Part shown: piece after piece, positions 2,970 through 29,987 of the stretch | Numbering within the stretch: the stretch's first letter is position 1 | How the letters are laid out: every line of letters starts with the position of its first letter | NCBI RefSeq assembly: GCF_000306885.1 | Contig: NC_018267.1 | Location: 150,001-182,000 of the forward strand | Source: Wolbachia endosymbiont of Onchocerca ochengi | GTDB lineage: Bacteria > Pseudomonadota > Alphaproteobacteria > Rickettsiales > Anaplasmataceae | Direction of reading: 5' to 3' | DNA length: 32,000 nt | Notes under the pieces: model-generated | The model's input: the letters and a program-made list of their open reading frames with translations, nothing else | Told to the model about the DNA's origin: nothing | Databases searched by the model: none | Program-made: the position numbers and the translations under genes

Positions 2970-4349
2970 GGCCTTGCAGCTCTATCATTCTGTATCCATA
3001 CAGGAGATAGCAGTAAAACAACTACTCTTAAAAGCTGGACTGAAATAACTGTTACTATTATAGAAGATTGCACAAAGATGGAAACAAGAGGAAAAGTAGT
3101 AAAGAACTTTCATTGCCCATGTTTATTGGAAAGGCAAAAATCACTCTACATTTTGAGAAAGCGTCTAGTATCTTCAGATTAAATATCAGGTTATCTTTAA
3201 AAGGTACAAAACAAAGCAAAGAGTCTGTTTAAGTATTACTGGCTTATTCAAAAATAGATGATTTTCTGAGTGTAATGTAGTTCTTCAGTTTACAGATGGA
3301 TGATTCTTTTAACAAGATTATTGTTAATAAAAGTATATATTTAACAGAAAAAATTAGACTTTATACCAAGAAAGTGCGTAAGTTATTATAACTTGGTGCT
3401 GTTCCCCACCTGCAACAAGTCAACTACATCTCCAATATAATGGAGCTTAAGAAGAATGATAAATCTTTTTTTTAATTAGAGAAGACGGGGAGAAAGTAAT
3501 CAGAGTCAGGAAAGGTAACCGCTTATATCACGTAAATTACTGAAAGCTACGTGCTCAAAGTATGAATTAATCAACAATAGCAATATCAAGAAAATTCATA
3601 CTTATATTATAATACAGTAAAAAGCACTACTTTGAGCAACATAATAAAACAGGCGACTGAAATGATGATAACTTTTCAATTCATTGTAACAGAATATACA
3701 TTAATAAAAAATATTAATCTAAGCATAATAAAATTATATAGGCAATCGAAACGGCAGGGCAATGTGATAGAACAAATGTACCAGAAATTTTGCCTCTTAT
3801 TAATTTTTGTAATTTACTTGACTCTTTAGATAGAAATTTTATTTTACCTGATTAAACAGGTAGTAAAAATCCCCTGATGAAGTTCTAAAAAAAACAAAAA
3901 GTTTGCTGCCCTGCTTATTTAAAAGATAGTGCAAGACGCATTATACCACCTTTAAGAGGTTGGTGATGAAACTTAAAGAGAATTATTGCAATAACTATAA
4001 CTTTCCTATCAATTTTAACTGCTACAATGCTTAAGGAGATTTAGGTAGTTTTTCCTACTTTACGTAACATTATTTTACACTCAAAGTTGTACAGGAGATT
4101 CCTCTTAGGCATAAAAATAGTGAAATATTAATAAATATTTTTTTAAAATTTAAAGATTTAGATGTTTGCTATTTAAAATAGTTAAAACTAGATAAATTAA
4201 TACACCTATTTATTCTTTTTTTACTGTCAGATCAAGTTCTACCGAATACAATAACTTTTTAGACTACTTCTTCTTACTTTTCATACTCAAATTCTAAAGA
4301 ACAGAGAAGTATATCTTCCGTAGCACTCTGCTCTTTTCTTCAAAAGAAT

Positions 4350-4529
4350 TCATCCTTCTCTTACCGTATCTTTCAATGCATCTGATCTTTTAAAGAACTT
4401 CTTATTATTATATTTTTTAAACTGTGCACTATAATCAAAATTTGGTTCTCCTGCTATGCTCGAAAGTACAAGTAGTTTTCTCCTATCTTGAGGTGTGATA
4501 AAAGATAACGCATGTCCTTCAGCTCCAGC
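4350..4529 (-). other. stop-free 59-codon continuation of the helicase frame after the internal TGA; it encodes the rest of motif VI and the C-terminal tail
   Basis: Reading straight on from the TGA at 4530-4532 gives AGAEGHALSFITPQDRRKLLVLSSIAGEPNFDYSAQFKKYNNKKFFKRSDALKDTVREG, then TGA at 4350-4352. AGAEGHALSF is the normal continuation of HRxGRTxRAG. Confidence 0.75.
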
Positions 4530-5552
4530 TCATGCAGTCCTACCTACACGATGGATATAGTCAGCTTGCGATTGTGGTACATCATAATTGATAACATGTT
4601 GAACATGTGGAATATCAAGACCACGAGAAGCAACATCTGTTGCAACCATAATTTGATTACGACCATTACGAAAAGAACTAATAACCCTTTCACGTTCGCG
4701 CTGCATTAAATTACCATGAATTGCCAAAGCACTATAGTTATCTTTGCGCAATTTATTAGCTAACTGATCTGCTCCTTGTTTCGTTTTAACAAATACAATG
4801 ATTGATCCTTCACGTTGACATAGTTGCGTAATAAGTTTACCATATTTTTTTAGCTCTGATACATAAATAATCTCTTGCTTAACTTTTGTAGAAATTGTAA
4901 CTTCATTTTCAATAGAAATATGTTCTGGCTGATCAAGATATTTCACAGCAAGCTTCATTATACTATTAGGAAGAGTTGCAGAAAACATGAGAGTTTGTCG
5001 TATTTTTGGGAGATATTTCATAATCTCTTCAATTTGAACTCCAAAGCCCATATCGAACATACGATCCATTTCATCAAGCACAAGAGTATTGACATTATAG
5101 GCCATCAAAGCTTCACGTTCAATATGATCTATAATACGACCAGGAGTACCTACCATAATTTGTGGCTCTTTCTGAAGCTGACTTAACTGCTTAAAAATAG
5201 ACTCACCACCAATTAGCAAGGCAATTTTTAACACGGAATTTTGAGATAAAAGCTTTCTTATTTCATTTGTTATCTGCTGTGCAAGCTCTCTAGTTGGCAC
5301 AATAACTAAAGCTGAACTAACACTAAAATCATCTAACAACTTAGCAATCAACGGAATAACGAATGCCAAGGTTTTTCCAGTTCCCGTTTGAGCAGAACCG
5401 AGAATATCTCTACCTTGTAGAGCTAGAGGAATTGCCTGTGCTTGAATCGGAGTTGGAATGAAAAAATTATGTTTATCTAGAACTTGCTTGAGTGAAACTG
5501 GAAGATCCATTTCATGAAAGCTGCCTATAGCTCTATTAAAAACTCTTACCAT
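4530..5552 (-). CDS. rhlE: DEAD-box ATP-dependent RNA helicase (RhlE-like), ended by an in-frame TGA inside motif VI; probably an interrupted gene whose full frame is 4350..5552
   Basis: Motifs found: Q motif (F..M.L...L + PTPIQ), motif I AQTGTGKT, Ia PTRELA, Ib TPGR, II DEMD (DEAD variant), III SAT, V (ATDVASRGLD). Motif VI reads HRVGRTA then stops, where HRxGRTxRAG is expected. Confidence 0.9.
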   Translation of the reverse strand: MVRVFNRAIGSFHEMDLPVSLKQVLDKHNFFIPTPIQAQAIPLALQGRDILGSAQTGTGKTLAFVIPLIAKLLDDFSVSSALVIVPTRELAQQITNEIRKLLSQNSVLKIALLIGGESIFKQLSQLQKEPQIMVGTPGRIIDHIEREALMAYNVNTLVLDEMDRMFDMGFGVQIEEIMKYLPKIRQTLMFSATLPNSIMKLAVKYLDQPEHISIENEVTISTKVKQEIIYVSELKKYGKLITQLCQREGSIIVFVKTKQGADQLANKLRKDNYSALAIHGNLMQRERERVISSFRNGRNQIMVATDVASRGLDIPHVQHVINYDVPQSQADYIHRVGRTA

Positions 5553-5562
5553 CGAAATCTAG

Positions 5563-5817
5563 TTAACTTTCTAACAACTTTAAATTTATTGCAGATTTTT
5601 TTCCTTCTCCATTCTTACCGCGCTCTTCTCTGAGCTCATAGCTTACTCTTTCTCCTTTTATTCCCTTTTCCTTATTTTCTCCTTTAAGTGAATCAGGTCT
5701 TATCCCTGAACGCTCTAATGTACTAATATGCACAAAAACATCGCTGCCTTTAGCTTCTGGCACAATAAAACCATAACCTTTTTCAGCGCTAAACCACTTT
5801 ATATTACCAAATTCCAT
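5563..5817 (-). CDS. cspA: cold-shock domain protein (CspA family) with Lys/Glu-rich insertions
   Basis: GNIKWFSAEKGYGFIVP....DVFVHIS matches the RNP1/RNP2 cold-shock motifs. The SD AAGGGGG lies 6 nt upstream of the ATG. The gene ends 10 nt before the helicase start. Confidence 0.9.
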   Translation of the reverse strand: MEFGNIKWFSAEKGYGFIVPEAKGSDVFVHISTLERSGIRPDSLKGENKEKGIKGERVSYELREERGKNGEGKKSAINLKLLES

Positions 5818-5954
5818 GTAAACACCCCCTTAAAATTATTGACTAATATTGCTAATGTGATGAAAAACTTTGAAATTACAACTGAAAATGCTTGAAGTCT
5901 AGTTATTAAAACTAAACCTCTATACTCCATAGTCTACTCTAACATTACATGGTT

Positions 5955-5983
5955 ATAGTACACAATTATTGTATTTAATGCAA
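5955..5983 (-). promoter_or_regulatory. candidate sigma-70 promoter for the csp-helicase unit
   Basis: The minus strand reads TTGCAT, then a 17-nt spacer, then TACTAT. This sits just downstream of the pmbA stop and implies a 5' UTR of about 130 nt. Long leaders are typical of csp genes. Confidence 0.35.
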
Positions 5984-5992
5984 CTAGAATTT

Positions 5993-8856: not shown

Positions 8857-10722
8857 TCATTTCCTCCCAAACAATTTTTCAATATCACTTAGTTTCATTT
8901 CTATGTAAGTCGGCCTTCCGTGGTTACATTGCCCGGAATATGGTGTTTCTTCCATCTGCCTAAGCAGCATATTCATTTCTTCTAACCTCATTTTTCTACC
9001 TGCCCTAATCGATCCATAGCAAGCAATCGTAGCTAATATTTTGTTTACTTTATCTTCTATTGGTAAAGTGTCTTCTATTTCGGTTAATCTATCAACTATA
9101 TTCATCAGCATCTCCTTCACATCTATTGTTCCCAAAATTGCAGGAATTTCTCTTGCTATAACTTCATTTTCTGATTTAATTTCAATATCAAAACCTATTT
9201 CAAAAAGCTTATTTTTATAAATCTCAACCATCTCCATTCCAGTTTGATTCTTAATTTCAACTACTTCAGGAAAAAAAAGCTTTTGTCTTTTTATGCTTGA
9301 CTTTTTTTTTAAGCATTCATAAATTAACCTCTCATGAGCTGCATGCTGATCAATTATAATTAATTTGTCTCTAGCTTCAGCAATAATATAAATATTGTAA
9401 ACCTGGCAACGTGCAAATCCAAGAGGATAGCTTTCTATCAAGTTAATTTGTTCCCTTTCTAAAACCATAGTCTCTGCTTGTAATGGAGATTTTTGTATAC
9501 CAGTACAATCAAATAACTCTGACCGTTCTGATAAGCTTTTCTCTCCCTTATTTAGCAAATTGAACCCTTTCATTAGCTGATTATCTAAATTGCTTGACTT
9601 TTCCTTATAGAATCCTTTACGAGTACTAAATGCACTAGGTAACATGTTTTTAACGAAACCACCCGTTATTGAAGTAATTGAATGCCGGAATTCACTGCAG
9701 ATTTCAGAATTACATACTGGAATGACATCAGAAATACCTATTCTAGTTGATAATGCTTTTATTATTCCCCTTGTCACTATCTCATATATTACCCTCTTAT
9801 CCTGAAACCTTACTTCTAACTTGTTCGGATGCACATTCACATCTACTTGGTCATATGGTACGTTTAAATGCAATGCTACAAAAGGATACCTGTCGCTCGG
9901 AATAAAATCATGATACGCATATCGAATTGCACCGATAAGTAGATTATCTTTAATCGGTCTTCCATTCACAAATGTATAAATCATAGTTGACTTGCTATAA
10001 TTAACAGTTGGCTTGCAGATGTGTCCTATAAGTCTAATACCATCTTTTTCTTCATCAATTTCCAAAGCATTGCCATAAAATTCTTCTTCTATTTCACATA
10101 GTCTACTAAATAATGAGGTTTGCTTGACATATTTTAAGAGCTTTTTATTGCCTGAACTGAGATTAAATCCGATATTATAGCTGGCCATCGCTAAGTTGTT
10201 TACAATATCAACAATATTTTGAGTCTCTGCTCTTTCAGTTCTTAGGAATTTCAGTCTATTCGGAGTAGCAAAAAATAAATCACGAACTTCAACATGTGTA
10301 CCCTGCGATAAAGAACAAGGCGTAATTTCTACTACTTCTTCTCCACCCTCATAACCTACAGACCACGCTTCATTTGTTCCTCTTGCTCTAGACGATAACT
10401 TTACTCTACTTACTGCCGCTATCGATGGTAGCGCTTCCCCTCTAAAACCAAGATGTTTAATTTCTATTAATTCACTATCATTCAATTTTGAAGTAGTGTA
10501 GCGCATAAATGCAAGTTTTAAATCACCCTTCTCCATTCCATTTCCATCATCTATAACAGTAATAAGATTACGCCCACCGCTTTCTATTTTAATCTCTATT
10601 TTTGAACTTCCAGCATCTATTGCATTTTCTATTAGCTCCTTGACTACACTTGTTGGCCTCTCAATTACTTCTCCTGCTGCTATACGATTTATAGTTTTTG
10701 CGTCTAAAAGAACTATTGCCAT
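8857..10722 (-). CDS. mutL: DNA mismatch repair protein MutL
   Basis: The N-terminal GHKL ATPase motifs are present: [32 protein letters not shown].....G...[23 protein letters not shown] also matches. The C-terminal dimerisation region ends ...[17 protein letters not shown]. Confidence 0.96.
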
Positions 10723-17659: not shown

Positions 17660-20209
17660 TCAACTACCTCCTTCACCAATTACAGTATTAAATATTAGAT
17701 CTTCATCAAAACTCATTTTAGGACGCCAAATAGGACCATCCAAATGCACATCAACATAAATTGGACTACTACGACCTGGTAATATGAAGAAGAACCTCGA
17801 TAAAGAAATTAAAGCAAAGTTAGGTAAGGTTAAGTTAGAAGAGACAGATCCTGATGCTTGATCAATTTCAAATTGTAGACTAGTTGAACATACACCATTT
17901 CTAATGCTTGCTTTTCCGCTAACATTTTTAAAAACCGTACTACCATTATATATACCAACATGAGTAAGTGTGGAAATCCCAGATTTATTTTTACTGCTAA
18001 ATAAATCAGTGATGAAAGAATTAAAGTCCACATTAGCAAATTCTATTTCCTGTGCTTGCAAATTAACCTCTCCTGACAAAGTATTAGCCCAATTGTGAAA
18101 GCTTTTTCCTTGAGCTTTAATCTCACCATCTAAGTTTAGTTTACCACTTAAATTATCAATTCCAATAACCTGAGCAACCCTTTTAATATCTAAACCTACA
18201 ACAAAAAATTTTATATACATTAAGTTTAATCTTAAATAACCCTGAAAAGACACTTGTCCATATTTCAATGCATAACTTACTTTTTTAACAGTTATAGTAT
18301 TATTTATCACTACCGCATCCAAATTAAAGTCCTTCAAAACATCCTGTCCAGTATTAAGCTTTGTAACACTAATCTGCACATTTGCATCAAAATCTTCTTT
18401 GCCATTTAAGAAATTAAACTGTTTCCTTGACCATTGAACCTGATCTATCTTATTTCTCGAATCTTTTCTCACTTCTATTAAATTCGGTAATTTTAAAATA
18501 CCAGCATTAAATTTATCGCCAGTTATGCTTACATCTAACAAAGGTTTAATATATTTTTGATCCGCTAATATTTTTATATTACCAGTAACATTGAAATCTT
18601 CTCCAGATAACTTTATTTTACCTGTAACAAGCCTGCCCTTTTCTATCTTCAGTAAGAAACCTAAACCTTCAATTTTTGTACCGTTCAACGTGAAACCATT
18701 AACATTGATTTTTATATTTGCATCATACTTCAGATCTTTTAACCATTGCACTTTTGATAAACCATCCAGTAATGAATAATTATATTTATCTAAGTTGAGA
18801 TCGTGTACACTGAATCTACCACTAATTACATTATGCTTTTTTGTGTAGTTTACCTTAACTGACCCTCGCCAAAATTCTTTATCATTCAGCAACTTAATAT
18901 CTGAAATAGACAATATCCTGGGCGCAAAGTGTAACCTCGAACTCATTGTAAATTGATTTCTCTTGTTTTCTCTAATCTTTATAAAAGGAAAAAAACATGA
19001 AATGAACGACTCAAAATCATCTCCTTTTAGCAATAAATCACCATCAAACTCAGACAAGATAAGATTGTTTGAAACTTTCCCTGATAAACGAGCTACATTA
19101 TTAGCTCCAGGAAGCCGAAGAAGCGTATCAACTTTTATTTTGCCATCAGCAAATTTTAGCATAGTATGAAATTTATCCAATATTCTGTTTTGGTATTGAA
19201 TACTTGAAGCTTCTACATTGAAATCTAAATTCAAGTTCTTTGGTACAACCTCTCTTAAACATTCTAGAAGACCCTTCATACTTATTACTTTTCGTGAGCT
19301 GTTTTGTATAGAGTCTAAATCAACTTTACTAAAAGTAATATCAATATTAGTATAATTATTTTTTTTATCGTTTCGTACTGTACCACTAGCCTGTATGTTT
19401 TTAGAATTAATTTTTAAATCATTTAACGTGAACTCACTTTCATTAAGGTTAATATTAGATGACATCTCAACATTTTCACTAGGAACAACATAAGCAAGAA
19501 AGCCAAGACCGATAATTTTTGCTAAATCACTCATAAAATTAGAACCATTATCAATTGACAGCATCAATTTGCCTCGGAGGCCTTCTCGGTTTTTATCACC
19601 TGCAAACAGCAAATTTATAAAACTTGATTTGATATTAATATGTACATTCTTTTTTGTAATATCAGCCTTCCCCGAAAAATCATAATTATTATCATCTACC
19701 TTTGCTTTACCATAGAAATGTCCGTTCTTTTTAATAGCAATCTCTTTTATATTAACAATACTTCTATAATCAGCAAAGTCATTGTTTAAATCTATTTGGC
19801 TATCTTTCATTATTACATCAACCTTACCAGGTCTTTTATTTACGATACTAATAAAATCTTCTTTACTACCTTTTACACCAAACAATGTGACCAATTTCGG
19901 TTGTAACGAAAATAAAAATAATGATAGAAAAGATGGCCTTATTTCAATCCTATTTATGCTAACCGAATCTGACAATTTTTGTTTTTTATCGTTGTTATAC
20001 TGCACATACACGTTATAAATAGTGAGCTTCGGAGTAATTAGTGAAACTTCAATTTTTCCTCCAATATGGATTCTAGCATTAAATGTGTCTTCTAATTTTT
20101 GTACAATAAGTTCTTCATAGCTATTCCAATCTTTAAAAGATATAGCAACCTTCAGAAGGATCAATATTAAAGAAATTGATAATATTATGTATATAAGAAG
20201 TCTTCTCAT
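17660..20209 (-). CDS. AsmA-family (AsmA/TamB/YhdP-like) large envelope protein
   Basis: 849 aa. An N-terminal signal-anchor is followed by ...DWNSYEELIVQKLEDTFNARIHIGGKIEVSLITPKLTIYNVYV, which fits the AsmA N-domain pattern. The rest is long and beta-rich, and the C-terminus is ...PIYVDVHLDGPIWRPKMSFD. Confidence 0.7.
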   Translation of the reverse strand: MRRLLIYIILSISLILILLKVAISFKDWNSYEELIVQKLEDTFNARIHIGGKIEVSLITPKLTIYNVYVQYNNDKKQKLSDSVSINRIEIRPSFLSLFLFSLQPKLVTLFGVKGSKEDFISIVNKRPGKVDVIMKDSQIDLNNDFADYRSIVNIKEIAIKKNGHFYGKAKVDDNNYDFSGKADITKKNVHINIKSSFINLLFAGDKNREGLRGKLMLSIDNGSNFMSDLAKIIGLGFLAYVVPSENVEMSSNINLNESEFTLNDLKINSKNIQASGTVRNDKKNNYTNIDITFSKVDLDSIQNSSRKVISMKGLLECLREVVPKNLNLDFNVEASSIQYQNRILDKFHTMLKFADGKIKVDTLLRLPGANNVARLSGKVSNNLILSEFDGDLLLKGDDFESFISCFFPFIKIRENKRNQFTMSSRLHFAPRILSISDIKLLNDKEFWRGSVKVNYTKKHNVISGRFSVHDLNLDKYNYSLLDGLSKVQWLKDLKYDANIKINVNGFTLNGTKIEGLGFLLKIEKGRLVTGKIKLSGEDFNVTGNIKILADQKYIKPLLDVSITGDKFNAGILKLPNLIEVRKDSRNKIDQVQWSRKQFNFLNGKEDFDANVQISVTKLNTGQDVLKDFNLDAVVINNTITVKKVSYALKYGQVSFQGYLRLNLMYIKFFVVGLDIKRVAQVIGIDNLSGKLNLDGEIKAQGKSFHNWANTLSGEVNLQAQEIEFANVDFNSFITDLFSSKNKSGISTLTHVGIYNGSTVFKNVSGKASIRNGVCSTSLQFEIDQASGSVSSNLTLPNFALISLSRFFFILPGRSSPIYVDVHLDGPIWRPKMSFDEDLIFNTVIGEGGS

Positions 20210-20286
20210 AATTTCATATGCTTATATATTACCCATGAACATTAGAGTACCAAAATAAATAACAACACCTAAAGGTACTAAAACTG

Positions 20287-21274
20287 TCAAATGAATAATG
20301 CAAGCAAATACTCTATCAAAAGAGATAATCCTGCCAATAAGAAGCTAAGAATGTAAAGAGCTATCGACATAACTAAAGTTGCAACAATAACTCTTACAAC
20401 ATTTAATAATAGTACCTGGTTAATCTTATACATTTTACTTATCGTTAAATAATGAGAATTAATAAAATAGAATTTACCCAAGTGAAAATAAAAGTAACAA
20501 TAGCAATCCCTCTATTATAGGACATTGCATTTAGTATAAGACTTACAATAATTGTATCAACCCATAGACTTATCTAAATTACACAGTTGTTGATAGTTGC
20601 TAGTATTATATGCTTGAAAAACTACTTTACTGCATTACTCAACTTTACACTAAAAAAAGGTAGCCTTTGACTTATATGCGCCAAACACCATTAACAATAG
20701 TCACAGAATTCCTCTAATTAAAACAAAACTGCTATAGAAAGATTGTGAACCAATGTTTTTATGTAAGGCACAAATAAACTGATAATTAGGCAATGATTTA
20801 AAATCACAGATGCAATAGCTATCGAAGCAAAGTATTGTTTTATTTACAACATTCTCCCAATAAATAACGCAACTAAAATGAAAATTATTAAAGAATCATA
20901 ATTCTTGACAGAGTCACAGTAAAGGTAAGCTTACTTTAATTAAATTCAGAAAGTAAATATTTGAACCATATAAGAAAGTTTGCATGGTAAGGCAAAAAAT
21001 TACCAAAATAATAAACGTAAGAGGTATTATACTACTTACAAAATTAAATGCCTTTTTATTATCACATGATTCTGTTGAATATAATGTAGTACAAAAAAGG
21101 TAGCAAACGCTCCTTCTGCAAAAAATGCTCGAAATAGATTAGTAAAATGAAACGAAGAAAAAATATATCTGTAAAAGAAGTTGTACTAACAATTTGAGCA
21201 ACCGATACATTCCTTATTAAAGAGACTCTTGAAATAGCTGTAAAAAACCTAAATGTGAGAATATTTTCAAACAT
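20287..21274 (-). pseudogene. murJ: decayed lipid II flippase gene murJ/mviN
   Basis: The N-terminal fragment is FTAISRVSLIRNVSVAQIVSTTSFTDIFFLRF..., compare E. coli [31 protein letters not shown]. The internal fragment is FASIAIASVILN......FVPY, compare FSIPAFAPTLLN....FAAPY. The C-terminal fragment is LLLNVVRVIVATLVMSIAL...LLAG, compare FLLRLVVAVLVMSGVL...VLAG. The fragments are collinear but separated by stops and frameshifts. The relic is about 1.0 kb against about 1.5 kb for an intact gene. Confidence 0.7.
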
Positions 21275-22243: not shown

Positions 22244-22317
22244 GGCGGGTGTAGCTCAGTTGGTAGAGTGTCAGTTTGTGGTACTGAATGTCGCCAGTTC
22301 GATTCTGGTCACTCGCC
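22244..22317 (+). tRNA. tRNA-His (anticodon GTG) with encoded G-1 opposite C73
   Basis: Hand-folded cloverleaf. Acceptor is GCGGGTG/CACTCGC, D arm GCTC-AGTTGGTA-GAGT, and anticodon arm TCAGT-TTGTGGT-ACTGA with GTG at 22278-22280. The variable region is ATGTC and the T arm is GCCAG-TTCGATT-CTGGT. An extra 5' G sits at 22244. The 3' CCA is not fully encoded. Confidence 0.93.
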
Positions 22318-24828: not shown

Positions 24829-25293
24829 ATGTCAACAAATTGGCTTCATAATTTGTTATTCGGTTCTAATGAATCGAAAATAGAAGCACTAAAAAAGGCT
24901 CAAAAAATTGATGCTAAGCAGTTTGAAGAAATATTCATTACATTAAAAGAAAAGATCGGCACTGAACAGTTTCAACTTATGCAAAATCACTTAAATGAAC
25001 TACAAGAAAAAGTAGAAACTCTCACAGAAACAGTAGTAAATCAAGAAAAAATAATGCTAACCTGTTGCATCGTAGCCAGCATTATTGCTTTAGCGGCAAT
25101 TAGTTTTATCTGCTTCTGTATCTATCAAGGAATAAAGAATGAAAAGGGGAAACAAAGAAGCTTATCTCAGAGTGCGCCAACCGAGAAACTGATTAACTTA
25201 CGTAAACCAAACCCAAACATGAAACTTAATGTAGATATTAGTAGCACTAAAAAACTACTGAAAGGTCGAGAATTAATGGCAATATATAAATAA
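24829..25293 (+). CDS. hypothetical coiled-coil / single-pass membrane protein (no family recognised)
   Basis: 154-aa ORF. A strong SD (AAGGGGG) lies 6 nt upstream of the ATG. About 70 N-terminal residues have a heptad-like pattern (LQEKVETLTETVVNQEK). One TM helix is present (IMLTCCIVASIIALAAISFICFCIY), followed by a basic C-terminal tail. Confidence 0.6.
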   Translation: MSTNWLHNLLFGSNESKIEALKKAQKIDAKQFEEIFITLKEKIGTEQFQLMQNHLNELQEKVETLTETVVNQEKIMLTCCIVASIIALAAISFICFCIYQGIKNEKGKQRSLSQSAPTEKLINLRKPNPNMKLNVDISSTKKLLKGRELMAIYK

Positions 25294-25374
25294 CACTTTT
25301 TCCTAAGAAGGTGTTACATACCCTGTAACACCTCGTACTTTAATGGAAAAGTACCCAATAAACTATTTTATTTT

Positions 25375-26520
25375 TTAATCATTTGTTCTCTTCTTTGTTA
25401 TCACAAGTCTTTTCTTCAGCACATTTTCAACTACAATACTAACTACCATAATTACAGACTCATCATGAACACTAAGCGATGTAATTAATGAACCATTCGC
25501 ACTAACAAAACAATTACTTAATATTCGTTTTATGTTTTTTCCTCCCATTACAGTTGCAAAAACATACAACACCTATATCACTTGCTTTTACTTTATGAAA
25601 TTCCCCACGATTACATTATCACCAATCATTGTACATTCATACTTAGTAAATGAGCCAATTCTAATACCGGACCCTATTTTTACTCAAGAATCAAAAAAAC
25701 TTATAGATAAATAATCAAAATTTATACTAATTTAAGTCTCAAAAAAACAGTCTCTGGAACAACAAGCATTACTCCTGAACCAATAAAGAATTTTCTTTAA
25801 CTTTCTTAAAAGTAAAACTCACCTTTTACAAGGTCACTTCTATCACTTATACTAATTGCTTCTTCCTCATCAACAGTAACATAACCGATATTTAAATTAC
25901 TCTTTATTGTAATGAAAATTGTATCAGTTAAATAATACTCATGAGTCAATTTATTACACTCTATTTTCCATCAAGTTAAGTAAATCTTTCATATGTGCAA
26001 CCATCATTCCAACACTCACAAAAAATTCTTCACTACTATTTTCGCCATTTTGTGCTTCTACGATTTCTCTCAAGAAATCATTCTCAACAACTAATCTACC
26101 ATACCTCTTATCGCTAGTTTTAAAACCAAAATAAACCAGAACCTTACCTTCTCTAAGCAACTAACCATTTCAGTTATCGTGCCACTTTTTATAAACGGAG
26201 TACCTCCATACTACACAATAACTATACTTGAACCTATAACTCTCTCAGGCCTCTTACCACAGTTCTGACCGCATCCCCTGTATCAACAAAAACATTAGTT
26301 CTTGTATAATTAACTGTACATCCTTAAAAAACCACAACCTTTTAATTAAAGATAAATCACCTACAATAGATATATATTCCAAGATTTAACCGTTTCGCAT
26401 TATAAGTAATATATTTGGCATGGAAAATTACCTATTTTATGTAGGACTTTAGACAAGTTTAAATTCATACACTTGTTCATACCCCGTGAGTATAACAAAT
26501 GCGTAAGTTTTGTTCTTCAC
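25375..26520 (-). pseudogene. glmU: decayed bifunctional GlmU (GlcNAc-1-P uridyltransferase / GlcN-1-P acetyltransferase) gene
   Basis: Collinear GlmU-like segments appear across three frames: AFVILTG, VQLIIQE then DTGDAVRTV, VVWRYSVY, KRYGRLVVENDFLREIVEAQNGE, HEYYLTD, SGVMLVVPETVFF and IGDNVIVGNFIK*K. A hexapeptide-repeat tail follows: SANGSLITSLSVHDESVIMVVSIVVENV..KRLVITKKR. There are many stops and frameshifts. The relic is about 1.15 kb against about 1.4 kb intact. Confidence 0.78.
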
Positions 26521-27564
26521 TTATCTTAAAGATGAAAAATGAAAACCATAGTGGTCAAGCCAGCTAATTCTATTACTATAAAAGCTTCTTAGGTCACCAA
26601 TTTGATATTTTAGCATTGCAAGCCTTTCTATACCCATGCCAAACGCAAAACCACTATATCTACTATAGTCTATTCCAACATTTCGAAAGATGTTTGGATG
26701 TACCATACCACATCCAAGTACCTCGATCCACTTACTATCCCTATAACTTATATCCACCTCTGCAGAAGGCTCAGTAAAAGGAAAAAAACTACTACGAAAA
26801 CGTATCTTTAACCCTGTATCTCCAAAGAACCTATTAAAGAAATAGTGAATAGTAAATTTTAGCTGGCCCATATTAACATTTTCATTTACATATAGTCCCT
26901 CTATCTGATGAAACATGGGAGTATGAGTTGCATCAAAATCATTTCTGTATACCCTACCTGCAGCTACTACTTTGATTGGGAAAGTTTTCGCCTTTTGCAT
27001 AGTTCTAATCTGCACAGACGAGGTATGAGTACGCAGCAACACTCTTCTGTTATCTACTTTATTCTTTAAGTAGAAAGTATCTTGCTCTTCACGTGCAGGA
27101 TGATAACTTGGAGTATTCAGCGCATCAAATACATAAAACTCATCCTCAATTTCAGGACCGTCTACTGCTCTAAAGCCCATATGTGCAAAAATGAGCTTTA
27201 CTTCGTTTATAACTTTACTGAGTGGATTAACTTTACCAATTTTCTCTGGCCTAACTGGTAATGTGATATCAACTGCTTCACTTTGCAGTTTTAAATTAAT
27301 TTCCTCGGCCTTTAATATATTTCCCTTATCTATTATAAGCTGATCTAACTTATTACGTAAGGAATTGACGGTCCTACCTAAATTACGCTTCTTTCCTATG
27401 TTTCCTATCTTCTTTAAATTACTAAAATACGCTTTAATTATACCCTTTTTCCCTAAATATAACAGCCTAACTTTTTCTAAATCTTCCAAAGAAGAAGCAC
27501 TTTCAATTTCGGACACAGCCTTATCTTCAAGCAAATGTACTTCATTCAATAGCTCTTTATTCAT
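26521..27564 (-). CDS. pheS: phenylalanine--tRNA ligase alpha subunit
   Basis: The class II aaRS motifs are present: ...HP......DTFY........LLRTHTS.VQIR.M..........GRVYR.D.DATHTPMFHQ.EGL.V......LK......FF..........R.SFFPFTEPSAEVD......WIEVLGCGMVHPNV......D......GFAFGMGIERLAML.Y.I.D.R. Confidence 0.96.
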   Translation of the reverse strand: MNKELLNEVHLLEDKAVSEIESASSLEDLEKVRLLYLGKKGIIKAYFSNLKKIGNIGKKRNLGRTVNSLRNKLDQLIIDKGNILKAEEINLKLQSEAVDITLPVRPEKIGKVNPLSKVINEVKLIFAHMGFRAVDGPEIEDEFYVFDALNTPSYHPAREEQDTFYLKNKVDNRRVLLRTHTSSVQIRTMQKAKTFPIKVVAAGRVYRNDFDATHTPMFHQIEGLYVNENVNMGQLKFTIHYFFNRFFGDTGLKIRFRSSFFPFTEPSAEVDISYRDSKWIEVLGCGMVHPNIFRNVGIDYSRYSGFAFGMGIERLAMLKYQIGDLRSFYSNRISWLDHYGFHFSSLR

Positions 27565-29987
27565 TCCGAAAATGCTAGCTTAAACCTTCATTATAGCAAA
27601 CTTACACAACACCAACAACTCAAAAAATTATCCTCATTTCGATTATTAATCTGCTGATTAATTATACTTTTTTATCTAATTTTATATTGAAAAACATACC
27701 GTACTACTATATTTAACAATAATATTAAACTAACGAAGAATACAAAGCAGATGATGATCTAAATTGTTTAAGGAGAAATATATAAAGACATAAGTAAAGC
27801 ATTCCATGATTAACTAATGGAAACCAGTACTACTTATTCAAGAAGCCTTATAAGCAACACACAGAAGTTTTCCATTTAAGCCAACAATATCGATGACAGC
27901 AGATCAAGGCATCCACGATACAATACTATTCAAATAAAACATTTAATCGACTTCTTTAAAATCTGCTTCTTCGAGGAAAAACTTTCATAGCTAACACAAA
28001 AGTACCAAAAGAAAGCAGTGAATTATATAACGACCACTATAAAACCGTGTAAGGATTCATTAGTAACGATCTACTCAAAATCCTTCTACGTAAATACTAA
28101 TTACACTATAAGTAAACACTAAAGACACTAACTTAGTAAGTTGCACCAAATTTAGCTATTCTTAAATTAAGAGCCAGAACATGTAGAAAAAACTGAAAGC
28201 AAATAGCAAAGTTAAGTTATAGCACAAGCAGAAAAAACTAAAAACAAAGAAAAACAGGATATAGTTCAAAAAGAAACCACATGAGATAAATAAATTGCAT
28301 CAATTAAAAATTCTTTTAGCTATAATAAAGCACAAGTTACATATCACCCAGCAATTATTGTAGCAATAATAAAAATGCTTCTTGGATTAGTTTTTTCTTA
28401 CTCACTAGACTTTCTTAATAAAACGTAGTCCTTCTTTTTACACCTACCGGAACTTTCTACATAAAAAAAGGCTTCGACTCGTCACTTAATATCTCAAAAC
28501 CAAAAACGTGCAAAGAATAATCAAGTAACCAGATCACACATAGAGTATATTAAGGCCAACAAAAAAAAATCAAGAAAGTAGACAGAAAAAGAAAGATAAT
28601 CTACTAAAATAAGCTAAAATTAATATCAGGTCAGCTACCGTAAATAATCTAACTGAGCACAAGAAAAAATTTTGATGAGACATTTACTAAAGTAGTCAGC
28701 AAATACCTGAAGACCAAGAAACATTTTGCAATACTATCAACTAAGAGTTTAACATTGTTTATTTTCAAAATAAACAATTACATGAAATATTAGAAATACT
28801 ACAACCAATTAGTAAGTCTTCTACTCCAAAAGAATATTTATAAAAGTAATTACATAGAAAAAAAAAGAGCGATTGCTTAAATTAAGCTCAGATATTCATA
28901 TACAACAATCTCTTCCACACCTAAAAACATTTTTCATAAAAATGGGAACTATGTACCAAACAAGCTGCAGATCCCTAAGCTGAACAAAGCTCTAGCAGCT
29001 AATACTATTTTCAAATCACTGTTTAAACTGTATTTTCCCCAAAAAAAACACTTCGTCTATTCTTGATAGCGTCCTTTATATCAATATTCTGCCTACAGGC
29101 ATTTGCTACTTGGAAAAGCATCAATCTTTAAAGGATCAGTGCCATCAGAAAAAAGAGAAATATTAGGTTAGCATTGAACATAAAGTTACTAATAACAATC
29201 ATACTATGTATTTTGATTCGGTTTATTTTATATATTCTAAATATTTGGTAAAATCTACCGAACAAATAAGCCAAAACAAGTTTACTTCATCCACTTAGAA
29301 AAATAGAAACAAGTTGTTTTAAAGAACTTCGTGTGATAAATAATTTCGTTTTTGCTATATGTTTAAAGGAATCATTACAGTATTGGAGCTATAATTAATA
29401 TTACCTTCTACTCCAACTCTGATCAAGTTTTCTACATTAAGGCACAAAACTTACCTTCTATATATAAAGGAGATCCAATAGCCTGTTCCAGTGTATGTTT
29501 AACTAATGTTAACAATCAATAATATATTCACAGCTCAAGCATCTCAAGAAACTATGAAAGTTTCTAATCTCAACACGTGAAAAGTAAGAGAAAATAAACC
29601 TAAAGCAAGCAACAATAAAATTAAGCGATAGGAGATTGATAACCACTTAGTTCAAGGTTATCTAGATAATAATAGTATAAATTTTAACAATTAGTAAAAA
29701 TTTAGGTTCCCATGAAATCAAGTTATCATGCCCAGAAGAATTATTAAATTCGTTGCAAAATAGTTTCCCTTACAGTAAACTCAATTATTACCAAGAAATT
29801 TACAGTAAACACTATTCTCTATAAATGGGAAAATATAACTTTACAGTATAATAAAGTAAATAATAGCTTAAACTTAGAAGTTAACATGATTACTCAATAT
29901 TTATATCAGCCGGCTCAGTATAAATACAATTAATTTTACAACCTTAGTATTTACAACTATTATACTTGCGAAGCACAAATATATAGT

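Follow-up and report, generated by a model that had tools for sequence, protein, structure and literature searches.

MurA and MurG both act on UDP-N-acetylglucosamine (UDP-GlcNAc), lipid II is canonically flipped by MurJ, and to our knowledge GlmU is the only enzyme that forms UDP-GlcNAc in the bacteria considered here. Three of the Wolbachia strains compared below, wOo, wOv, and wOgib, live in Onchocerca worms: wOo is the symbiont of the cattle filarial worm Onchocerca ochengi, and wOv is the symbiont of the river-blindness worm. Wolbachia has been described as a 'peptidoglycan-intermediate' genus keeping murA-G, mraY, and MurJ (PMC5814848), and a 2022 paper reports cell-wall genes as highly conserved in all Wolbachia except wHow, the Howardula Wolbachia (PMC9515626). 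In the strongly degraded wOo genome (957,990 bp), 88 genes have been lost or pseudogenised uniquely, gene density is the lowest of any Wolbachia genome, and the peptidoglycan gene suite has been called 'identical between wOo and wBm' except for a pseudogenised argD (PMC3514676); wOo MurA is the annotated protein YP_006555880.1 (PMC4062475). Here we describe, in a stretch of 32,000 nucleotides (nt) of this genome (contig NC_018267.1, positions 150,001 to 182,000; the window, in whose own numbering positions are given), a relic of glmU that is almost certainly the non-functional remnant of the orthologous wOo gene, inactivated in the ancestor of the Onchocerca strains after the split from wDimm, the Dirofilaria immitis strain. 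Its closest described counterpart is the intact GlmU of wDimm (P0001, 412 amino acids (aa); L086:10001-11239), an ortholog with the same position after pheS and the same convergent downstream neighbour.

Identity, lesions, and age of the glmU relic

In a DNA alignment the relic runs on the minus strand from 26520 to 25363, with 80.6% nucleotide identity over 1158 nt to intact wDimm glmU, and a tblastn search of the whole window with intact wDimm GlmU as query recovers it in two frames (E 1.75e-55). An earlier note on this DNA, made from the letters alone, had placed a glmU fossil directly downstream of pheS, and both results bear it out; the start it gave agrees with ours, but the end, put at 25375, falls twelve bases short. 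Un-stitched, stop-free fragments of open reading frames (ORFs; n = 3) match three stretches of NF010933, the NCBIfam GlmU model, that follow one another in the same order as the fragments (Table 1), and these matches, with the minus-strand translation, confirm the ordered series of GlmU-like peptides that the note had listed. The two ORFs that it took for mere surviving fragments (25375..25572 and 25954..26160) do match the GlmU model and recur in other assemblies. Translated in three minus-strand frames, the relic yields GlmU-like peptides that include LSKVLHKIGNF (wDimm LPKVLHKIGNF), the clearest N-terminal match and one absent from the earlier list; the peptide VVWRYSVY in that list was read in the wrong frame, the homologous reading being IVIV*YGGTPFI.

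A 377-aa pseudo-protein stitched by hand matches NF010933 with E 1.3e-43 (profile 3-312 plus the C-terminus), GlmU structures in the PDB with E 2e-15, and its closest database protein, a Wolbachia GlmU, with E 4.5e-113. Because expected motifs guided the stitching, the un-stitched fragment matches and the whole-window tblastn search are given more weight. The stitched sequence scores below the equivalog cut-offs of both full-length models (149 bits against 505 for NF010933 and 112 bits against 366.85 for TIGR01173). Pfam searches of the stitched sequence and the fragments returned no NTP_transferase match and only a weak Hexapep match in one fragment (E 2.5e-4); for this relic, the full-length NCBIfam GlmU models are far more sensitive than Pfam. 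In a protein database search, every close homologue is a GlmU from Wolbachia, about 411-431 aa long, and that of wDimm ranks first at 55% identity. After column-by-column repair of the frame, the conceptual translation shares 66.7% identity with wDimm GlmU.

In four other Wolbachia, namely those of Psylliodes (L001) and Meromenopon (L003), wStur (L002), and wDimm (L086, CP046578), glmU is intact and starts 0-7 nt past the stop codon of pheS, which answers the earlier suggestion that relatives might hold an intact gene downstream of pheS. The PheS-based contig scan was dominated by a widely conserved peptide pattern and contained 3 Wolbachia loci among the 80 returned, which sufficed for the comparison of gene order. 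In wDimm the order is lgt-smpB-cvpA ... pheS-glmU, a convergent 153-aa gene, and L25-pth-tRNA-murJ-asmA-like-rpoD, and the window has the same order. Since this gene order (pheS together with the convergent neighbour) matches that of wDimm, the relic is the ortholog and not a stray paralog; the same synteny rules out a phage-associated paralog of GlmU, which was also considered. In Wolbachia, glmU has pheS as its upstream partner in the operon.

Relative to the intact frame of wDimm glmU, the relic carries 15 indel events, 13 of them frameshifting and two of them in-frame deletions (6 nt and 72 nt), together with 6 internal stops at reference codons 103, 238, 241, 265, 275, and 281. The several stops and at least three frame changes counted in the earlier note thus pointed in the right direction, but the decay is far heavier. 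An uninterrupted GlmU frame, which would span about 410-460 codons, is absent, and the longest ORF in the 1.2 kb 3' of pheS on the minus strand has 68 codons. Within codons 13-185 of the N-terminal half lie 8 frameshifting indels and 1 stop, and the first lesion breaks the nucleotide-binding loop (LAAGxGxRM...PK), which reads LAAGHGKRMNSNLPK in wDimm and LT(frameshift)GMNKCMNLNLSK in wOo. Hexapep remnants of the left-handed beta-helix acetyltransferase domain remain, but NARVKHLSYIGNTKVGTGSNIGAG has been deleted; this segment includes KHLSYIGN, which we take to be the catalytic His motif of the acetyltransferase (HLxYxGD) and the counterpart of H363 in E. coli GlmU. The acetyltransferase half lacks 24+2 = 26 codons relative to intact Wolbachia GlmU; the earlier figure of roughly 70 came from a comparison with the E. 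coli enzyme of 456 aa, whereas Wolbachia GlmU natively has about 412 aa. Under the bacterial pseudogene criterion used here, which combines homology to a known gene with disabling lesions and evolution without constraint, nothing weighs against the pseudogene call itself. Judged by its sequence, the relic is predicted to encode nothing, with neither enzymatic half capable of being made.

The independently sequenced wOv (HG810405, L087), which is 99.3% identical to wOo across the spacer, has 13 of the 15 indels and all 6 stops in common with wOo; two 1-nt deletions, at about 26378 and 25747, are private to wOo. In wOgib (L097, JABUMP01), which is 95.7% identical, most lesions are also present, as judged by eye in a four-way alignment and not tallied, among them the nucleotide-binding-loop deletion, a 5-nt insertion, the TAG at codon 103, and the large deletion. 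That 72-nt deletion is the same in wOv and near-identical at the same place in wOgib, about 1 nt shorter in the alignment. Since most lesions are common to wOv and wOgib, the death of glmU falls between the split from wDimm and the divergence of wOo, wOv, and wOgib. The 68-aa ORF fragment and the 65-aa fragment (64 aa in two cases) are found in every further public assembly returned, about a dozen (annotated fragments at loci L081-L085 and L087-L096). An assembly artefact, which we had considered, is ruled out by the same lesions in wOv and wOgib and the same fragments in these further assemblies. Public gene calls list 25375-25572 and 25954-26160 as hypothetical proteins of 64-65 aa and 68 aa, respectively, and wOv adds one of 47 aa; all of these are annotation artefacts of the pseudogene. 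No intact GlmU of any Onchocerca Wolbachia is among the matches listed in a search of 5.8 billion proteins. Within Wolbachia, the loss of glmU is lineage-specific, so far confined to the Onchocerca strains wOo, wOv, and wOgib.

The divergence of the relic from wDimm is flat across codon positions (0.195, 0.165, and 0.222 at positions 1, 2, and 3), against 0.118, 0.084, and 0.219 in eight intact neighbours. When changes are polarised with two outgroups (L002 and L003), the wOo branch has 91 changes and the wDimm branch 17 at glmU positions 1 and 2 together, and at position 3 they have 20 and 21; in pheS, the control, positions 1 and 2 show 19 and 25. Because the excess is found only on the wOo branch and at positions 1 and 2, constraint was lost specifically on the Onchocerca branch, and the wDimm gene is still selected. 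Dating the death of the gene from divergence at positions 1 and 2 was tried and rejected, as the pseudogene fraction for the wOo branch came out above 1, and was replaced by the outgroup-polarised counts. Between wOo and wOv the relic differs at 0.65% of sites and the eight intact neighbouring genes at 0.26%; decay is therefore still under way.

Table 1. Features discussed in the text, with positions in the window.
Feature	Position	Strand	Remarks
glmU pseudogene	25363..26520	minus	Original GTG start kept, directly 3' of the pheS stop
Broken nucleotide-binding loop	26478..26490	minus	2-nt deletion at reference codon 13, the first lesion
GlmU fragment	26160-25957	minus	NF010933 profile 125-190, E 3.1e-07
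GlmU fragment	25970-25809	minus	NF010933 profile 191-239, E 7.2e-05
GlmU fragment	25572-25378	minus	NF010933 profile 381-428, E 4.1e-03
72-nt deletion junction	25560..25575	minus	wDimm codons 320-343 (NARVKHLSYIGNTKVGTGSNIGAG) gone
murJ (lipid II flippase) pseudogene	20203..21274	minus	10 frameshifting indels, 420-nt deletion, 5 internal stops
pheS	26521..27564	minus	Intact, 347 aa; exact match to CCF78009.1 of wOo; 83% identical to wDimm PheS
wOo_01900	24829..25293	plus, convergent with the relic	Intact hypothetical, 154 aa; exact match to CCF78008.1
Inverted repeat	25310..25332		GGTGTTAC-N7-GTAACACC, between the convergent relic and wOo_01900; read from the sequence
tRNA	22245-22317		Rfam match
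ribE (riboflavin synthase) relic	~29353-29930	plus	Two lumazine-binding domains
Fragmentary matches to a 593-aa Wolbachia ORF	~27784-29168	plus	tblastn matches; no Pfam domain
DEAD-box helicase ORF	4530-5552	minus	340 aa
mutL	8857-10722	minus	Apparently intact, 621 aa, all domains

The lipid II pathway and competing explanations

A relic of murJ lies about 4 kb from the glmU relic, between pth/tRNA and the asmA-like gene as in wDimm. It has 86.2% nucleotide identity to intact wDimm murJ (L086:15187-16674); homology (tblastn E 1.9e-39) and position identify it as MurJ / MviN (Pfam PF03023), but no intact ORF remains. Its 420-nt deletion and nearly all of its other indels and stops are common to wOv and wOgib in alignments compared by eye. 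A database search with wDimm MurJ found intact MurJ in the Wolbachia of Brugia, Wuchereria, Mansonella, and Dirofilaria and in many insect strains, and none from an Onchocerca Wolbachia among the source-named matches listed. From these shared lesions, murJ appears to have died in the same ancestor as glmU. None of the three sequenced Onchocerca Wolbachia has a working copy of either gene, and both are intact in the other filarial strains and the insect strains named among the matches listed.

In other Wolbachia, glmU is an intact gene of about 412 codons whose start lies at the pheS stop or a few bases from it. In the common ancestor of wOo, wOv, and wOgib, once that lineage had split from the Dirofilaria immitis strain, glmU was inactivated, and it then drifted without selection, accumulating frameshifts, stops, and the deletion in the acetyltransferase half. 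The relic may still be readable because this genome removes dead DNA slowly, as its lowest reported gene density suggests. The Onchocerca strains would then be unable to make their own UDP-GlcNAc, with murA and the rest of the lipid II set reported intact, and would most likely draw it from the worm cell; with murJ dead, lipid II would be flipped by another protein or would no longer be exported in the usual way. We lean towards a pathway that still runs on host-supplied UDP-GlcNAc with another protein flipping lipid II, and we regard it as the better supported reading because glmU has gathered 19 disabling lesions while the mur genes are reported intact. Weighing against it are the sources for that intactness, which are the 2012 paper (PMC3514676) and one accession. 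In addition, since PMC3514676 makes an exception only of argD in its otherwise 'identical' suite, its list either did not extend to glmU and murJ or missed their loss.

The lipid II and peptidoglycan pathway could instead be functionally dead in the Onchocerca Wolbachia, wOv included, with glmU, murJ, and argD as the earliest genes to decay visibly and the remaining mur genes as functionless passengers on their way out. The loss of three pathway-linked genes (glmU and murJ here, and argD in PMC3514676), the absence of AmiD from filarial strains (PMC5543032), and the existence in wHow of a Wolbachia without any cell-wall genes (PMC9515626) all speak for such an outcome. It would run counter to the working assumption that every filarial Wolbachia conserves the lipid II pathway and cannot do without it, and would mean that cell-wall-precursor inhibitors validated in insect-cell Wolbachia fail against onchocerciasis. 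We nevertheless consider it rather unlikely, as useless mur genes would be expected to show similar damage over an equal time, and those of wOo are reported intact despite the 13 frameshifts and 6 stops in the long-dead glmU.

Other explanations concern the relic itself. Retention of its DNA for a non-coding role, as a 3' untranslated region or terminator of pheS or as an antisense or regulatory RNA, might account for the persistence of about 1.16 kb since before the Onchocerca strains diverged and for the hairpin at its 3' end, and transcripts have been reported from about 98% of wOo gene models including pseudogenes, although no pseudogene peptides were detected and the glmU locus is not named there (PMC3514676). 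Such a role is very unlikely: a promoter and terminator scan of the relic found promoter-like sites at chance frequency (9 against 7.6 expected) and called no terminator, the sole Rfam match in the window is a tRNA outside the relic, the relic diverges between wOo and wOv faster than its intact neighbours, and the long murJ and ribE relics that also persist nearby fit slow deletion better. That glmU should still function is hardly credible, whether as a uridyltransferase-only enzyme, through programmed frameshifting, or because the frameshifts are sequencing errors. Rickettsia GlmU does naturally lack the acetyltransferase half (PMC5615194), and the GTG start is kept in wOo, but the N-terminal half is itself broken from codon 13 on, no stop-free stretch exceeds 68 codons, selection on codon positions 1 and 2 is gone, and the same lesions or fragments recur in wOv, wOgib, and the further assemblies. 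Almost no weight at all can be given to the proposal, made in the earlier note, that this is an Ehrlichia-type member of the Anaplasmataceae whose relic records the loss of both peptidoglycan and lipid A from the family. A low G+C content (31%) and the overall appearance of the genome would suit it, but PheS, ribosomal protein L25 (an exact match to wOo CCF78007.1), and wOo_01900 are identical to proteins of the Wolbachia of O. ochengi, and the close homologues of both the relic and PheS are all from Wolbachia, a genus that still has glmU, with more than 80 intact clusters, as well as the lipid II pathway (PMC3514676, PMC5814848). The loss is limited to the Onchocerca strains, with mur genes reported kept, and is not a family-wide loss of both polymers.

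Taken alone, the relic is one more ordinary pseudogene in a highly degraded genome; it is of some use in correcting how the lipid II pathway is seen in the lineage of the river-blindness symbiont. Drugs against Wolbachia that hit this pathway (fosfomycin, MraY inhibitors) are being sought, mostly with tests in insect-cell strains, and a lineage-specific hole at both its entry and its exit narrows the targets that can be transferred to onchocerciasis; GlmU, a target listed for wBm, is not transferable. If the Onchocerca strains do run the pathway on host UDP-GlcNAc, as we favour, uptake of this precursor becomes a concrete candidate host dependency. That wOo has pseudogenes is known, and the public record or the supplements of PMC3514676 may already mark glmU as one of them. 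No searchable paper names the loss of either glmU or murJ in Onchocerca Wolbachia, the supplementary lists of PMC3514676 lying outside that search.

Other features of the window

The convergent neighbour wOo_01900, for which a Pfam search gave no match, is 71% identical to the 153-aa ORF at the same place in wDimm. The inverted repeat between it and the relic may be a bidirectional terminator; it has no T-run, the terminator scan did not pick it up, and the equivalent position in wDimm (L086 11251-11298) holds another hairpin.

Pieces of the ribE relic, which lies between pheS and cvpA, match intact genes at L001, L002, and L003, and the riboflavin pathway has indeed been published as lost from wOo. 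The equivalent gap of wDimm has no called gene, and ribE may be degraded there too. The fragmentary matches to a 593-aa Wolbachia ORF (L001:8125-9903) probably mark another pseudogene, one that fills most of the 2.4-kb gap between pheS and cvpA. Further along the window, a DEAD-box helicase ORF stops exactly where its Helicase_C domain ends and is flanked by gaps at 2970-4529 and 5553-5992, with about 1.5 kb of unannotated DNA after the ORF; it may be a truncated gene with further relics beside it. The window also holds mutL, apparently intact though the genome is reported to be without nearly all homologous-recombination genes.

Comparison with described systems

The wDimm gene, an uninterrupted ORF under purifying selection, differs from the wOo copy in having none of its 13 frameshifts, 6 stops, and 72-nt deletion. 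Other wOo pseudogenes (argD, the riboflavin pathway, and bfr; Darby et al., 2012, PMC3514676) belong to the same genome and the same reductive decay, and the glmU relic fits the definition of a pseudogene adopted in that study, namely homology to an annotated gene together with premature stops or frameshifts; unlike argD, neither glmU nor murJ is named in its main text. Rickettsia, likewise an obligate intracellular alphaproteobacterium, has also shed part of GlmU and uses amino-sugar precursors of its host (Driscoll et al., 2017, PMC5615194). However, Rickettsia keeps a working N-terminal enzyme that acts on host N-acetylglucosamine-1-phosphate, and no such uridyltransferase-only GlmU with an intact N-terminal ORF is present in wOo, where codons 13-185 are disrupted; with both halves destroyed, only ready-made UDP-GlcNAc would serve. 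A further parallel is wHow (PMC9515626), another nematode Wolbachia that has lost cell-wall synthesis genes, but wHow lacks essentially the whole pathway as well as ftsZ, whereas the Onchocerca strains reportedly lack peripheral steps only, in precursor supply (glmU, argD) and in flipping (murJ).

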